The position numbers were made by a program, and so were the translations under genes. Of a stretch of 64,000 bases of DNA, positions 8,576 through 15,050 are shown piece after piece. Each line of letters opens with the position of its first letter. Positions within the stretch are counted from its first letter, which is position 1. The stretch is from Escherichia coli. GTDB lineage: Bacteria > Pseudomonadota > Gammaproteobacteria > Enterobacterales > Enterobacteriaceae. Under the pieces are notes generated by a model. It saw only the letters and a list, made by a program, of their open reading frames with translations. It had not been told where the DNA came from and did no database searches. Location: assembly GCF_024502345.1 (NCBI RefSeq), contig NZ_JALDNN010000001.1, one strand, 5' to 3'.

Positions 8576-9382
8576 ATGTCTGTGGTAATTAGTGATGCAT
8601 GGCGTCAGCGTTTTGGTGGCACAGCGCGTCTGTATGGTGAAAAAGCGTTGCAACTGTTTGCTGACGCGCATATTTGTGTGGTTGGTATCGGTGGTGTCGG
8701 TTCCTGGGCGGCGGAAGCGCTGGCGCGCACGGGGATTGGCGCAATCACGCTTATCGATATGGATGATGTGTGCGTCACCAATACCAATCGGCAAATTCAT
8801 GCCCTGCGCGATAACGTTGGGCTGGCAAAAGCGGAAGTCATGGCGGAACGTATTCGCCAGATTAACCCGGAGTGCCGTGTAACGGTGGTGGATGATTTCG
8901 TGACGCCGGATAACGTAGCGCAGCATATGAGCGTGGGTTATTCGTACGTGATTGATGCCATTGATAGTGTACGGCCCAAAGCGGCGCTGATTGCTTATTG
9001 TCGGCGCAATAAAATCCCGCTGGTCACGACCGGTGGCGCGGGTGGGCAGATTGACCCAACGCAGATTCAGGTTACCGATCTGGCGAAAACGATTCAGGAC
9101 CCGCTGGCGGCGAAGTTGCGCGAGCGCCTGAAAAGCGATTTTGGCGTAGTGAAAAACAGTAAAGGTAAGCTCGGCGTGGATTGCGTGTTTTCTACTGAAG
9201 CGCTGGTGTACCCGCAGTCAGACGGTACGGTGTGTGCGATGAAAGCCACGGCAGAAGGGCCGAAGCGGATGGATTGTGCATCTGGATTTGGCGCGGCAAC
9301 GATGGTGACCGCCACCTTTGGGTTTGTTGCGGTTTCTCATGCGCTGAAGAAGATGATGGCGAAAGCGGCGCGTCAGGGTTAA
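8576..9382 (+). CDS. tcdA: tRNA threonylcarbamoyladenosine dehydratase TcdA (CsdL/YgdL), E1-like (268 aa)
   Basis: 268-aa ORF with ThiF/MoeB-type nucleotide-binding motif VVGIGGVGSW. Confidence 0.88.
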   Translation: MSVVISDAWRQRFGGTARLYGEKALQLFADAHICVVGIGGVGSWAAEALARTGIGAITLIDMDDVCVTNTNRQIHALRDNVGLAKAEVMAERIRQINPECRVTVVDDFVTPDNVAQHMSVGYSYVIDAIDSVRPKAALIAYCRRNKIPLVTTGGAGGQIDPTQIQVTDLAKTIQDPLAAKLRERLKSDFGVVKNSKGKLGVDCVFSTEALVYPQSDGTVCAMKATAEGPKRMDCASGFGAATMVTATFGFVAVSHALKKMMAKAARQG

Positions 9383-9389
9383 ACAATCA

Positions 9390-9421
9390 GGTCGGATGCG
9401 ACGCGAACGTCTTATCCGACC
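9390..9421. repeat. REP-like palindromic element between convergent tcdA and csdE
   Basis: ggtcggatgcgacgcgaacgtcttatccgacc. Confidence 0.6.
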
Positions 9422-9432
9422 TGGTTCTGTGC

Positions 9433-9876
9433 TTAAACCTGCTTCGCCGCAGCGATAATTGCCTCGCTTAACGCATTCAACCCCTGGCTGCGTGAGGCGC
9501 TAAGCTGCCCACGCAATCCCAGCTCATCAAACAATGCCAGCGGCGACTGTGCCTGTAATTCGGCGGCGGTTTTCCCCTCAACGGCAGTCAACAACACCGC
9601 CAACAGGCCGCGCACAATGCGCCCTTCGCTGTCGCCAAAGAAGTGCATTTTACCGTTTTCAGCCACGGTATATCCCAGCCAGACGCGGTTTTCGCATCCG
9701 GCAATCTCTTTAGCCTGCGCTTTTAACTCGTCTGGCAAAGCCGGAAGCTGTTTCCCCAGCATGATCAACTGGCGATATTTATCTTCCCATTGCGTCAACG
9801 GTGCGAAGGTATTGCGTAACGTTTCTGCGGTTACGGTTGTGCCGAACGGATGTCCGGCGAATTGCGGGTTTGTCAT
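9433..9876 (-). CDS. csdE: Sulfur acceptor protein CsdE (SufE-like, 147 aa)
   Basis: 147-aa ORF recognised as CsdE/YgdK; its start overlaps the csdA stop. Confidence 0.88.
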
Positions 9877-11081
9877 TAATCCACCAATAATTCCAGCGCA
9901 CGGTCAACGGCATTCACCAGCGCATCCACATCACTCTTTGTATTATATGGCGCAAAAGAGGCGCGCAGTGTGCCGGTTACGCCTAATTCTGCCAGTAGCG
10001 GCTGAGCGCAATGTTGCCCGGCCCGCAAGGCAATACCGTACTCCGCCAGTAGCGTCACCATATCGCTGTGATGAACGCCAGCAAAATCAAAGGCCAGCAG
10101 GCTGGAATCCTGGCAGCGGAATGAACGAAAGCCTGGACGTTTCGCCAGCGCATCTTCCGCCAGCGTTGCTAAGCTATGGCTCCAGTTTTCGGCCTGGTTG
10201 ATATCGTAATCTGCCAGCCATTCCAGCGCCGCGCTTAATCCTATGACACCAGCCACATTTGGCGTTCCTGCTTCCAGTTTCCACGGCGCAGATTGAGTCG
10301 TGAAGCCGTCAAAACTCACTTCGTGAATCATTTTGCCGCCACCCAGCCAGGGCGACATCGCTTCCAGCAGTTCTGATTTGCCATACAGCACGCCGATACC
10401 CGTCGGGCCATACAGTTTGTGACCAGAGAAAGCATAGAAATCGATATCCAGTTGCTGAACATCCGCGGGGAAATGCACCGCCCCCTGAGCACCATCAACC
10501 ATCACCACCATCCCTGCTGAATGAGCAAAGGTAATCGCTCGCGCCAGATCCGGGCAACCGCCAGTAACGTTCGACATCTGACTCAACGCCAGAATCCGAC
10601 TACGGGGAGTAATCAGTTCTGGCAACAAATCGACATCCGGCAGTCGCTGCGCATTAAGCGGCAATTTCACCACTTTGGCTCCAGTTTGTTGGGCGACCAT
10701 CAGCCAGGGGACGAGGTTGGCGTGGTGTTCTGCCACGCTGACAATAATCTCATCGCCCGGTTGCAGACGCGGACGCGCATAGCATTGTGCCACCATGTTG
10801 ATGGATTCAGTGGTGCCGCGCGTCCAGACGATAGTTTTATCATCCGGTGCATTCAGTAATTGCGCCACTTTCTCTCGTGCAGCTTCATAACGCGCGGTCA
10901 GGCGTTGGGCTTCGGCAAACTGGCTGCGATGGACGTTTCCGGCGCTCAGGCTGTAAAACTGTCGAGTGGCTTCAACCACGGCTTCAGGTTTAAGCGCGGT
11001 CGCGGCGCTGTCGAGATAGACGCCCGCATCCTGTAGTGCGGGAAACTGGGCGCGAAACTGCGCGGGATTAAAAACGTTCAT
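9876..11081 (-). CDS. csdA: Cysteine sulfinate desulfinase / cysteine desulfurase CsdA (401 aa)
   Basis: ORF 9876..11117; start set at [16 protein letters not shown]; class V aminotransferase with PLP-binding SGHKLYGP motif. Confidence 0.9.
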
Positions 11082-11272
11082 GGTACTCCTCGGCTTGATG
11101 CACCGATCGTGACGCAAAATTCACTTTGATACAAGGAGAGTGCTAACCATCAGAATTATCTGGATATCCTGGCGAAGCCGCGTCAGTAACATATGCTGAA
11201 TAGTGTTAGGCGTTAATTTTAGCCTGTTAATCAATACTATTAAGATTTATTAATCGCTTTAAGGAGAAGATG

Positions 11273-11500
11273 ATGAAAAAGACTGCCGCAATTATTTCTG
11301 CCTGTATGCTGACTTTTGCCCTGAGCGCCTGTTCCGGTTCGAACTATGTGATGCACACCAATGACGGACGTACCATCGTCTCTGACGGCAAACCACAGAC
11401 TGATAACGATACCGGTATGATTTCGTATAAAGACGCTAATGGCAACAAACAGCAGATCAACCGTACCGACGTGAAAGAGATGGTCGAACTGGATCAGTAA
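11273..11500 (+). CDS. ygdI: Small lipoprotein YgdI (DUF903, 75 aa)
   Basis: [23 protein letters not shown] lipoprotein signal; short ORF. Confidence 0.8.
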
Positions 11501-11516
11501 TTCGCGATCGCAAGGT

Positions 11517-11722
11517 AAAAAAAAGCACCGCAATTAGGCGGTGCTACATTAATCACTATGGACAGACAGGGTAAATGTACAGGAAGTGAAAAAAGGTAGC
11601 TTTGCTACCATGGTCTGAATCGCAGACCAATTGCAAACACAACAACACAACATCACAACCGTAAGCCAAAAGTTCACCAGAACACGCATTCCGATAAAAC
11701 TTTTCGTTCCGGCTCAGGAAGT
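11517..11722 (-). ncRNA. gcvB: GcvB small regulatory RNA (about 206 nt)
   Basis: Minus strand reads ACTTCCTGAGCCGGAACGAAAAG...GTTGTGATGTTGTGTTGTTGTGTTTGCAATTGG... and ends in a hairpin GCACCGCCTAATTGCGGTGC plus U-run; recognised as E. coli GcvB, divergent from gcvA. Confidence 0.9.
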
Positions 11723-11850
11723 GCCGCCACTATAGGTATTTGCTGGTAGAAGCTCAACGGACAATTTATAATGGCTCAGATTAAAAAAACTAATAGGTTA
11801 CACAGTGTAATCTAATTGTTAAATTCATTTAACATCAAAGTTTAAAAGCC

Positions 11851-12768
11851 ATGTCTAAACGATTACCACCGCTAAATGCCTTACGAGTTTTTGATGCCGC
11901 AGCACGCCATTTAAGTTTCACTCGCGCAGCAGAAGAGCTTTTTGTGACCCAGGCCGCAGTAAGTCATCAAATCAAGTCTCTTGAGGATTTTTTGGGGCTA
12001 AAACTGTTCCGCCGCCGTAATCGTTCACTCCTGCTGACCGAGGAAGGGCAAAGCTATTTCCTCGATATCAAAGAGATATTTTCGCAATTAACCGAAGCGA
12101 CGCGTAAACTCCAGGCCCGTAGCGCCAAGGGGGCGTTGACGGTCAGTTTACTCCCCAGTTTCGCCATTCATTGGTTGGTTCCGCGACTTTCCAGCTTTAA
12201 TTCAGCTTATCCGGGAATTGACGTTCGAATCCAGGCGGTTGATCGTCAGGAAGATAAACTGGCGGATGATGTTGATGTGGCAATTTTTTATGGCCGGGGC
12301 AACTGGCCGGGGCTACGGGTGGAAAAACTGTACGCCGAATATTTATTGCCGGTGTGTTCGCCGCTACTGCTGACTGGCGAAAAACCCTTGAAGACCCCGG
12401 AAGATCTGGCTAAACATACGCTATTACATGATGCGTCACGCCGTGACTGGCAGACATATACCCGACAGTTGGGGTTAAATCATATCAACGTTCAGCAAGG
12501 GCCAATTTTTAGCCATAGCGCCATGGTGCTGCAAGCGGCTATCCACGGGCAGGGAGTGGCGCTGGCAAATAACGTGATGGCGCAATCTGAAATTGAAGCC
12601 GGACGTCTTGTTTGCCCGTTTAATGATGTTCTGGTCAGTAAAAACGCTTTTTATCTGGTTTGTCATGACAGCCAGGCAGAACTGGGTAAAATAGCCGCCT
12701 TTCGCCAATGGATCCTGGCGAAAGCCGCTGCTGAACAAGAAAAATTCCGCTTTCGTTATGAACAATAA
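11851..12768 (+). CDS. gcvA: Glycine cleavage system transcriptional activator GcvA (LysR family, 305 aa)
   Basis: 305-aa ORF with LysR-type N-terminal HTH; recognised as GcvA. Confidence 0.93.
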   Translation: MSKRLPPLNALRVFDAAARHLSFTRAAEELFVTQAAVSHQIKSLEDFLGLKLFRRRNRSLLLTEEGQSYFLDIKEIFSQLTEATRKLQARSAKGALTVSLLPSFAIHWLVPRLSSFNSAYPGIDVRIQAVDRQEDKLADDVDVAIFYGRGNWPGLRVEKLYAEYLLPVCSPLLLTGEKPLKTPEDLAKHTLLHDASRRDWQTYTRQLGLNHINVQQGPIFSHSAMVLQAAIHGQGVALANNVMAQSEIEAGRLVCPFNDVLVSKNAFYLVCHDSQAELGKIAAFRQWILAKAAAEQEKFRFRYEQ

Positions 12769-12786
12769 TTTACGTAGGGTACGACC

Positions 12787-13182
12787 ATGACCAGCCGTTT
12801 TATGCTGATTTTCGCCGCCATTAGCGGCTTCATTTTTGTGGCACTGGGCGCTTTTGGTGCGCATGTGTTAAGTAAAACCATGGGGGCCGTTGAGATGGGC
12901 TGGATCCAAACCGGTCTCGAATACCAGGCGTTTCATACGCTGGCGATCTTAGGTCTGGCGGTGGCAATGCAGCGTCGCATCAGTATCTGGTTTTACTGGA
13001 GTAGCGTTTTCCTCGCGTTAGGCACGGTGCTATTCAGCGGCAGCCTTTATTGCCTGGCACTGTCCCATCTGCGTTTGTGGGCGTTTGTCACTCCGGTTGG
13101 CGGCGTGAGCTTCCTTGCGGGCTGGGCGTTAATGTTAGTTGGTGCTATCCGTTTAAAGCGCAAGGGCGTAAGTCATGAATAA
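12787..13182 (+). CDS. ygdD: Inner membrane protein YgdD (DUF423, 131 aa)
   Basis: Hydrophobic 131-aa ORF; 8-bp overlap with the rlmM start. Confidence 0.85.
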
Positions 13183-14275
13183 GATTGTATTGCTGTGCCG
13201 TCCGGGCTTTGAAAAAGAGTGCGCCGCAGAAATTACCGATAAAGCCGGCCAGCGGGAAATTTTCGGTTTTGCCCGCGTGAAAGAGAATGCGGGTTATGTC
13301 ATTTATGAATGTTATCAACCTGATGATGGCGATAAGTTAATCCGTGAGCTGCCGTTCAGTTCATTAATTTTTGCCCGCCAGTGGTTTGTGGTGGGGGAAC
13401 TCTTGCAGCATTTGCCGCCAGAAGATCGTATTACCCCCATTGTCGACATGTTGCAGGGCGTAGTAGAGAAGGGCGGTGAACTGCGTGTTGAAGTTGCCGA
13501 TACCAACGAAAGCAAAGAGTTGCTGAAATTCTGCCGTAAATTTACTGTTCCGCTACGCGCTGCCTTGCGCGATGCGGGGGTGCTGGCGAACTATGAAACG
13601 CCGAAGCGTCCGGTTGTGCATGTATTCTTTATTGCACCAGGCTGCTGCTATACCGGTTACTCATACAGCAACAATAATTCGCCGTTCTATATGGGCATTC
13701 CGCGCCTGAAATTTCCGGCAGATGCGCCGAGTCGTTCCACGCTCAAACTGGAAGAGGCATTTCATGTGTTTATTCCTGCGGATGAGTGGGATGAACGCCT
13801 GGCGAACGGGATGTGGGCGGTGGATTTGGGCGCTTGCCCAGGCGGCTGGACCTACCAACTGGTGAAGCGCAACATGTGGGTTTATTCCGTCGACAACGGC
13901 CCGATGGCGCAAAGTCTGATGGATACCGGGCAGGTGACGTGGCTACGGGAAGACGGGTTCAAATTCCGTCCGACACGCAGCAATATCTCCTGGATGGTAT
14001 GCGATATGGTTGAAAAACCGGCGAAAGTTGCGGCATTGATGGCGCAGTGGCTGGTTAATGGCTGGTGTCGTGAAACCATTTTCAACCTCAAACTGCCGAT
14101 GAAAAAACGCTACGAAGAAGTGTCACACAATCTGGCGTATATTCAGGCACAGCTTGATGAACATGGCATAAATGCTCAGATTCAGGCGCGGCAGTTGTAT
14201 CACGATCGCGAAGAAGTGACGGTGCACGTCCGCCGCATCTGGGCTGCGGTGGGGGGGCGTCGCGACGAGCGATAA
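13175..14275 (+). CDS. rlmM: 23S rRNA 2'-O-ribose C2498 methyltransferase RlmM (YgdE, 366 aa)
   Basis: 366-aa ORF; recognised as RlmM. Confidence 0.88.
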
Positions 14276-14318
14276 CAGGCAAGGCCGGGGCGTCGTTTCC
14301 GGCCTGCTACCCTTTCCG

Positions 14319-15050
14319 TCAGGCTGTTACCAAAGAAGTTGCAACCTGGCGTTCATCAGAAATAATGTGCGTTACCTCATCCAGATGCCCGATGCGGGCT
14401 TCCCCTGAACGATTAAATTTACTTTTATCAATCAATAACAACGATTGCGCGGCGCGTTTTAATAGCATTGATTTGTAATCAGCGTTGATAGCATTGGAGT
14501 CCCACAGTGCGCCGCTGCTATCGATCCCTTCACAAGAAAAAATAAACAGATCGATTTCCAGCGATTTAAGTTGGGAAATCAGCGAGGGATTGACGTAACA
14601 GCCATATTTGCGCTCAAGTGTGCCGCCGGAACTGATCAGTTGAATGCGTTCGCGTTTACCGAGTTCATGGCAAATCGGATGGCTATTGGTGAAGACCTGA
14701 ATGTTGATGTCAGGCAACTGGCGTGCCAGATACCAGCAGGTTGAACTGGCGTCTAAGGCTATCACCATCCCTTCTTCAATCCACGCGAGCGCCTCGCGCG
14801 CGATATCTGCTTTATGCGCATAATGGCTTTTCAGCCGGATGTGAAAGGGATCGCCACTGTCTTGATTTTGACGGTGGATATATTTAGCGCGTCCATGATT
14901 GCGCAGAATTTTACCCTGCGTCTGTAATTCATTGAGATCGCGACGAATGGTTTCTTTACTGACCTTTAGCTGTTCAGAGAGAGCTTCCGTGGTCAGGCTG
15001 GTATGGTTCAGCAGCAGGTCGACTATCGCTTGCTGGCGTGCCGCTTTCAT
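14319..15050 (-). CDS. fucR: L-fucose operon activator FucR (DeoR family, 243 aa)
   Basis: ORF 14319..15059; start set at MKAARQQAIVDLLL; DeoR HTH. Confidence 0.9.
   Translation of the reverse strand: MKAARQQAIVDLLLNHTSLTTEALSEQLKVSKETIRRDLNELQTQGKILRNHGRAKYIHRQNQDSGDPFHIRLKSHYAHKADIAREALAWIEEGMVIALDASSTCWYLARQLPDINIQVFTNSHPICHELGKRERIQLISSGGTLERKYGCYVNPSLISQLKSLEIDLFIFSCEGIDSSGALWDSNAINADYKSMLLKRAAQSLLLIDKSKFNRSGEARIGHLDEVTHIISDERQVATSLVTA

Follow-up and report, generated by a model that had tools for sequence, protein, structure and literature searches.

The minus strand of positions 11517..11722 in the stretch of Escherichia coli DNA analyzed here (64,000 nucleotides, hereafter termed the window) is almost certainly the gcvB gene, with the promoter, ends and mechanism proposed below. 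GcvB of E. coli is already known, and the present locus is that known gene itself, which makes this a correct but ordinary find. When window positions 9000..14500 were scanned against all 4227 Rfam families, the sole strong match was to GcvB (RF00022), located exactly at 11517..11722 on the minus strand with a score of 199 bits and an E-value of 9.6e-48; the gathering score for this family is 42 bits. The match spans model positions 1-204 of 204 and is not truncated. In addition, the interval is identical at 206 of 206 nucleotides to the curated gcvB gene (b4443) of strain MG1655 (NC_000913.3 2942696..2942901), whose annotated ends are also both ends of the window interval. This identity provides the conversion used throughout for mapped positions (window position = 2954418 - MG1655 coordinate). 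The gap of 16 nt that separates gcvB from the ygdI stop codon in MG1655 is the same in the window, and the minus strand of the interval reads ACTTCCTGAGCC...GCGGTGCTTTTTTTT. The coordinates of the gene and its associated features are collected in the table.

Features of the gcvB locus, in window positions, with mapped 3′ ends of GcvB and ygdI transcripts
Feature	Position	Strand	Details	Basis
ygdI CDS	11273..11500	+	DUF903 lipoprotein, 75 aa; convergent on gcvB	RefSeq annotation
ygdI 3′ UTR	11501..11548	+	ends 3 nt past hairpin	Term-seq
ygdI primary 3′ end	11548	+	MG1655 2942870 (-); LB OD 0.4; score 36,630	Term-seq
ygdI primary 3′ end	11549	+	MG1655 2942869 (-); LB OD 2.0; score 1,164,820	Term-seq
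ygdI primary 3′ end	11548	+	MG1655 2942870 (-); M63; score 441,780	Term-seq
gcvB (GcvB sRNA)	11517..11722	-	206 nt; +1 at 11722, last U at 11517	Rfam, MG1655 identity
GcvB 3′ end at t2	11524	-	MG1655 2942894 (+); LB OD 0.4 only; score 134,815	Term-seq
Terminator t2	11517..11545	-	8-bp hairpin 11545..11524 and U tail 11523..11517	terminator scan
R3 seed region	11559..11572	-	ACCCUGUCUGUCCA; nt 151-164; G156, G160, C162	invariant columns
R2 conserved region	11579..11588	-	CACUUCCUGU; nt 135-144	invariant in 55 sequences
Stem-loop 3 and U6, internal terminator-like site t1	11589..11609	-	nt 114-134	terminator scan
Stem-loop 2	11611..11629	-	nt 94-112	Rfam structure, MFE fold
R1 GU-rich single-stranded seed	11634..11659	-	nt 64-89; between stem-loops 1 and 2	exact string
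Stem-loop 1	11664..11714	-	GcvB nt 9-59	Rfam consensus structure
gcvB sigma-70 promoter	11729..11757	-	-35 TTGAGC 11757..11752; -10 TATAGT 11734..11729	consensus scan
Conserved upstream block	11753..11795		CTATTAGTTTTTTTAATCTGAGCCATTATAAATTGTCCG; ~-31 to -74 from gcvB +1; 90-100% column identity	Enterobacterales
gcvA CDS	11851..12768	+	LysR-type activator of gcvB and gcvTHP; divergent from gcvB	RefSeq annotation

An earlier note on this DNA had placed a GcvB sRNA at this interval and had proposed an Rfam scan and a comparison with published GcvB ends as checks. Both bear the proposal out, the scan by a full-model RF00022 match of 199 bits at the interval and the comparison by 5′ and 3′ ends that coincide with 11722 and 11517. 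The note had also named the lack of an Rfam GcvB match as the outcome that would speak against its reading; because the match covers the whole model at exact coordinates, the opposite was found. A match to Hrs13 at 11517..11588, which scores 28.1 bits and falls below the gathering score of 52, extends over the 3′ 72 nt and might suggest that the GcvB match is only a chance or partial resemblance, for example to the terminator, and that the locus encodes another sRNA such as Hrs13. We give this possibility virtually no credence. The GcvB match takes in all 204 model positions, the locus is identical to curated gcvB in sequence and gene order, and the Hrs13 match is both below threshold and centered on the terminator. 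It was therefore rejected as terminator similarity only, and the reading is refuted by the Rfam result and the MG1655 identity. There is no evidence against GcvB identity.

Relative to GcvB of E. coli K-12 (b4443; RF00022), the sequence, ends, promoter, divergent gcvA and convergent ygdI are identical, and the R1, R2 and R3 regions and two terminators are likewise the same, with zero differences inside the gene. The flanks differ slightly, as MG1655 contains no exact copy of a 900-nt segment around gcvB. Several other E. coli chromosomes, including that of strain SK1144, are 100% identical to the locus over a 701-nt stretch. The gene is nearly universal in the species: it and the 701-nt stretch are each found in 5425 of 5426 complete E. 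coli genomes, and identity over the 206 nt is ≥99% in 5389 of them. Most PGAP-annotated E. coli genomes carry no feature named gcvB; this missing label is an annotation gap and not evidence of gene absence. Among the 5429 gcvB matches in the same collection, one is on a plasmid-typed record, and one of the 5426 genomes has no match. In E. coli OkiPb01677, a natural isolate (NZ_AP042483.1 3137861..3139400), an IS4-like element, ISVsa5, is inserted within gcvB after nt 125, parting R1 from R2, R3 and the terminator.

Elsewhere in the window, just downstream of csdE, a sub-threshold match to naRNA4/CssrE was observed at 9377..9421 on the minus strand (29.4 bits against 59.5). This sequence resembles a REP-type palindrome, GGTCGGATAAGACG...CGTCGCATCCGACC.

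The RNA exhibits the anatomy expected from the Rfam consensus structure. The GU-rich string GTTGTGATGTTGTGTTGTTGTGTTTG, quoted in the earlier note as the single-stranded R1 region on the minus strand, occurs only once in the 64-kb window, at the R1 position given in the table, where none is expected (100 shuffles). The Rfam structure leaves it unpaired, and the MFE and centroid folds largely do so too, in agreement with that description. Within R1 lies an 8-nt UUGUGUUG expansion that the Rfam model treats as an insert. When the Rfam structure is placed on the sequence, R2 is followed by a stem-loop 4 region with R3, and then by terminator t2 (nt 178-199) and the U tail. R2 is a named seed in PMC9299463, the same study in which R3 was defined by the mutations G156C, G160C and C162G; the mutated positions correspond to G156, G160 and C162 of R3 CCCUGUCUGUCC in the window. 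The MFE fold of GcvB is more stable than those of shuffled sequences (z = -3.6), with none of 200 shuffles being as stable.

A mechanical ORF call identifies an ATG-to-stop reading frame of 46 codons within the GcvB transcript (11549..11689, minus strand), and it could be argued that the locus encodes a 46-aa small protein instead of, or beside, a non-coding RNA. However, the ATG resides inside a paired stem of stem-loop 1 and lacks a properly spaced Shine-Dalgarno sequence. Among related species, R1 varies by an indel of 8 nt, and stem-loops 2 and 3 vary by indels of 1-3 nt; each of these falls within the ORF and destroys the reading frame. GcvB RNAs are also reported to be untranslated (PMC1557403). 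We consider translation of this frame exceedingly improbable, and the ORF was rejected on the grounds of the buried ATG, the frame-breaking indels and the published observation.

To establish how this RNA varies among relatives, an exact-pattern scan (the end of R1, a gap of 30-60 nt, and R2) was run with one genome per species. It gave at least 120 loci, from which 119 of Enterobacterales were retained. A Paenibacillus locus (L040) was left out as a chance match, since it has no gcvA, no terminator and no Rfam match. All seven other loci that were tested reach the Rfam gathering score, with values of 131-190 bits. Among the matches listed, a divergent gcvA is present upstream in every one of the 119 Enterobacterales loci with enough upstream flank.

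In an alignment of 55 sequences, 86.7% of cells are paired according to the Rfam structure, compared to 34-50% in controls with the 3′ partners shifted by 1-3 columns. Changes on both sides are seen in 16 pairs, a count that is reached by none of 500 shuffles. The base helix of stem-loop 1 is 100% paired and its apical helix has compensatory double changes in 9 of 14 pairs, and stem-loop 3 is 95.4% paired with double changes in two pairs. The apex of stem-loop 1 and stem-loop 3 thus provide most of the covariation support. Stem-loop 2 is 63.9% paired, a count made unreliable by MAFFT having shifted the helix outside Enterobacteriaceae. Across the same 55 sequences, almost no variation is seen in the 5′ leader, R1, the terminator stem or the 45 nt extending from R2 to R3, with columns T134-T144 (R2) and A151-C162 (R3) being invariant. 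The invariance of R2 is partly due to ascertainment because R2 is part of the search pattern, and R3 is not in that pattern.

The t2 stem (GCACCGC/GCGGTGC) is invariant while its loop varies freely in 118 Enterobacterales loci among the matches listed (L003-L122), and the stem is therefore uninformative for covariation. Since it is invariant even where ygdI is not adjacent, the constraint acts on the sequence itself, beyond base-pairing, and does not derive from ygdI. The convergent neighbor is more variable in its placement. Among the matches listed, ygdI is convergent on gcvB in 77 loci, and the gap from hairpin to ygdI stop codon is ≤35 nt in 61 of these, which belong to Enterobacteriaceae and some Serratia. 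Yersinia, Rahnella and Hafnia have wider gaps of 50-287 nt, and in the Morganellaceae and Edwardsiella loci gcvB has no adjacent ygdI.

GcvB RNAs of Yersinia, Serratia and Morganellaceae retain the same architecture and the divergent gcvA, with invariant 5′ leader, R2-R3 block and terminator stem. They differ in that R1 is 8 nt shorter and lacks the UUGUGUUG repeat, and in the apex of stem-loop 1. Of the loci sampled, those of Enterobacteriaceae have this R1 expansion and those of Yersiniaceae, Hafniaceae and Morganellaceae do not. In this comparison ygdI lies 50-287 nt off or is non-adjacent, and thus the terminator is not shared there. An insertion of ~20-30 nt in the apical part of stem-loop 1 was noted in Xenorhabdus indica (L086:5575-5804), X. 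innexi (L089) and a MAG (L024). The two Xenorhabdus RNAs have a total length of 228-230 nt, and L086 and L024 still score 145-150 bits against Rfam GcvB.

The earlier note's statement that gcvB is divergent from gcvA is likewise correct. GcvA, encoded at 11851..12768 on the plus strand, matches NCBIfam NF008352 with 512.8 bits (cut-off 288), and the region between gcvA and the gcvB +1 (11722, minus strand) is 128 nt long. On the opposite side, the ygdI product matches NCBIfam NF033216 at 113 bits. The genes ygdI and gcvA point in the same direction (11273..12768, plus strand), and gcvB occupies the opposite strand between them. If ygdI transcription ran on beyond the hairpin, it would cross all of gcvB in the antisense direction and enter the gcvA promoter region.

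The candidate gcvB promoter has nine of 12 consensus matches and a 17-nt spacer, with the -10 element ending 6 nt before +1. It is supported because this -35/-10 geometry fits the annotated +1. In 98 distinct upstream sequences from Enterobacterales, both hexamers lie inside a block of 80-100% conservation that reaches ~75 nt upstream of +1. The portion at 11753..11795 is presumed to be the GcvA activation site. Putative GcvA binding sites have been described within -90 to +1 of gcvB (PMC1557403), and conservation over ~75 nt upstream of +1 is consistent with that statement.

The note's claim of a strong terminator at the minus-strand 3′ end is well supported. The t2 hairpin, AGCACCGC-CUAAUU-GCGGUGCU, comprises an 8-bp stem with six G-C pairs and a 6-nt loop, is followed by eight U residues, and has a predicted energy of -14.3 kcal/mol on the gcvB strand. 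Together with its U tail, this hairpin presumably constitutes the Hfq-binding 3′ module. Mapped 3′ ends were taken from the Term-seq data of Adams et al. 2021 (PMC7815308, supplementary file 1), in which GcvB (MG1655 2942894, window 11524) ends on the first U, 7 nt before the annotated terminus.

Two terminators, t1 and t2, have been described for gcvB, with t1 yielding a 130-nt RNA and lacZ fusions indicating ~90% termination at t1 in E. coli (PMC1557403). No 3′ end at t1 or near GcvB nt 130 is listed in any of the three Term-seq conditions (PMC7815308), a discrepancy that may arise if the short form of GcvB is unstable. Term-seq does reveal GcvB 3′ ends inside R1 on the minus strand, one at window position 11650 (nt 73) in LB at OD 2.0 with a score of 132,094, and a second at 11655 (nt 68) in M63 with a score of 1,692. 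No GcvB terminator 3′ end is listed in either LB at OD 2.0 or M63 (PMC7815308). The R1-internal ends suggest a stable 5′ decay fragment formed during GcvB turnover.

A Rho termination region has been mapped to MG1655 2943134 (+), which is window position ~11284 on the minus strand, antisense to the 5′ end of ygdI (PMC7815308, supplementary file 2). It has a Rho score of 10.25 (p = 2e-71), with downstream coverage of 44 without and 355 with bicyclomycin. Because the 800-nt upstream span used in this measurement includes gcvB, transcription that escapes the GcvB terminator seems to be halted by Rho in antisense ygdI.

The earlier note further described the terminator as bidirectional and shared with ygdI, and this claim holds in part. 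The primary 3′ end of ygdI and the GcvB end at t2 lie on opposite sides of one hairpin, with the ygdI end mapped there in all three Term-seq conditions, and thus the claim of a shared terminator is sound as regards the positions of the ends. The overlap of the two transcripts, which spans the hairpin (11524..11545), amounts to 25-32 nt, depending on whether GcvB ends at 11524 or at the annotated 11517. The hairpin is 23 nt from the ygdI stop codon, and no other structure is present within these 23 nt. On the ygdI strand, the hairpin has a predicted energy of -15.4 kcal/mol, with eight A residues before it and the tail ACAUUAAUCA after it. It is the canonical terminator in the ygdI direction that fails. 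The tail (ACATTAATCACT, ACATTAATCA) contains no U tract, with three T residues in its first 8 nt, and the consensus scan calls terminators exclusively on the minus strand and none on the ygdI strand. The canonical features of a hairpin and U tract are thus not found in both directions, and this was the only tested feature to fail. The failure concerns the label "bidirectional intrinsic terminator" and not the identity of GcvB.

Given these features, the hairpin may terminate ygdI transcription or may just protect and stabilize a trimmed mRNA 3′ end, two routes that look alike in steady-state Term-seq. One possibility is that the hairpin terminates gcvB alone, and that ygdI transcripts read through it, stop downstream where they are antisense to gcvB, and are trimmed back. 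By this account, 3′-to-5′ exonucleases would digest the ygdI mRNA as far as the stable hairpin, which would serve as a 3′ stabilizer. We assign this possibility an appreciable but minority chance. The lack of a U tract on the ygdI strand is in its favor, with no more than four T residues in the first 8 nt of the tail across 77 ygdI loci among the matches listed. The ygdI-side tail is fixed by the GcvB sequence itself, and because that sequence, AGUGAUUAAUGU, is conserved, the tail is never U-rich. Intrinsic termination typically leaves a 3′ end 7-9 nt past the stem, and the ygdI end, at only 3 nt past it, is closer than this. However, the Term-seq 3′ end of GcvB is also near the stem, at the first U, and so stem-near ends may be general in these data rather than specific to ygdI. 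Furthermore, the published data include no Rho termination region downstream of ygdI on the strand of that gene, and hairpins lacking U tracts have been reported as bidirectional terminators (bioRxiv 10.1101/2022.10.23.513370).

Direct termination of ygdI at the hairpin could proceed, by analogy with those elements, through pausing and polymerase collision, as reported for hairpins without U tracts that act between convergent E. coli genes (bioRxiv 10.1101/2022.10.23.513370). The ygdI-gcvB arrangement resembles the class identified by SEnd-seq (Ju et al. 2019), as described in that preprint, in having convergent transcripts that overlap across one hairpin element, and in having at least one direction without canonical intrinsic features and with no Rho region called there. 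The present locus differs in that the gcvB direction is served by a textbook intrinsic terminator. It also differs in having a ygdI end that is strong in both stationary phase and minimal medium, two conditions with no listed GcvB terminator end, and this speaks against collisions with gcvB polymerases being strictly required.

The expected function of the RNA follows published work on GcvB. Its transcription runs divergently from gcvA, with GcvA and GcvR as regulators and glycine as inducer (PMC9299463); regulation by GcvA and GcvR is also described in PMC1557403. The sigma-70 promoter (-35 at 11757..11752 and -10 at 11734..11729) would drive transcription leftwards from 11722 on the minus strand, and, according to the literature, GcvA would activate it when glycine is abundant, with GcvR counteracting. 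The product would be a 206-nt non-coding, Hfq-dependent RNA that ends at the intrinsic terminator, whose hairpin also marks the 3′ end of the convergent ygdI mRNA. Together with Hfq, GcvB blocks translation initiation by binding to C/A-rich sites in the 5′ UTRs of gltI and other mRNAs (PMC4474525), and repression of oppA and dppA requires the 206-nt form (PMC1557403). In the window's RNA, R1 (nt 64-89) would accordingly be predicted to pair with C/A-rich sequence in or just upstream of ribosome-binding sites of mRNAs for amino-acid and peptide transport and metabolism, including dppA, oppA, gltI and cycA. Such pairing would block translation initiation and promote mRNA decay, with R2 and R3 probably acting as additional seeds. 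R1, R2 and R3 are the established seeds of GcvB, which is degraded by RNase E after pairing with SroC (PMC9299463), and RNase E would likewise be expected to remove this RNA once it has paired with the SroC sponge.

R1 is complementary to dppA from -44 to -11 (-27.1 kcal/mol) and to oppA from -10 to +15 (-23.1 kcal/mol), values that are equaled by 0.8-3.6% of shuffles (4-18 of 500). Both sites are of the kind that has been published for these mRNAs. The duplex-energy test is poorly specific for so GU-rich a seed, as values down to -30 kcal/mol are also obtained for the start regions of spurious long ORFs in the window. The case for target pairing is accordingly that of the published experiments and not of computation. 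The identity, ends, structure and conservation of the RNA, its gene order, and its complementarity to dppA and oppA are observations of the present analysis. Control by GcvA, dependence on Hfq, target repression, turnover through SroC and RNase E, and the mapped 3′ ends are taken from the literature.

In the Term-seq data, stationary phase and minimal medium give a very high ygdI 3′-end signal, and GcvB is dominant in exponential growth in rich medium. It is conceivable that the convergent pair forms a reciprocal regulatory unit beyond sharing a hairpin, in which transcription of either gene would lower the output of the other through collision at the hairpin or through the 25-32-nt complementary 3′ overlap. 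We consider this unlikely.

Few bacterial small RNAs have been studied as thoroughly as GcvB, whose regulon is one of the largest known, and the recovery of GcvB here confirms that this RNA, exact ends included, is recognizable from raw sequence. The manner in which the ygdI 3′ end is formed, and any coupling between ygdI and gcvB, would represent a small addition to work on bidirectional terminators rather than a system of a new kind. If the two genes do interfere with each other reciprocally, this would be of modest interest.
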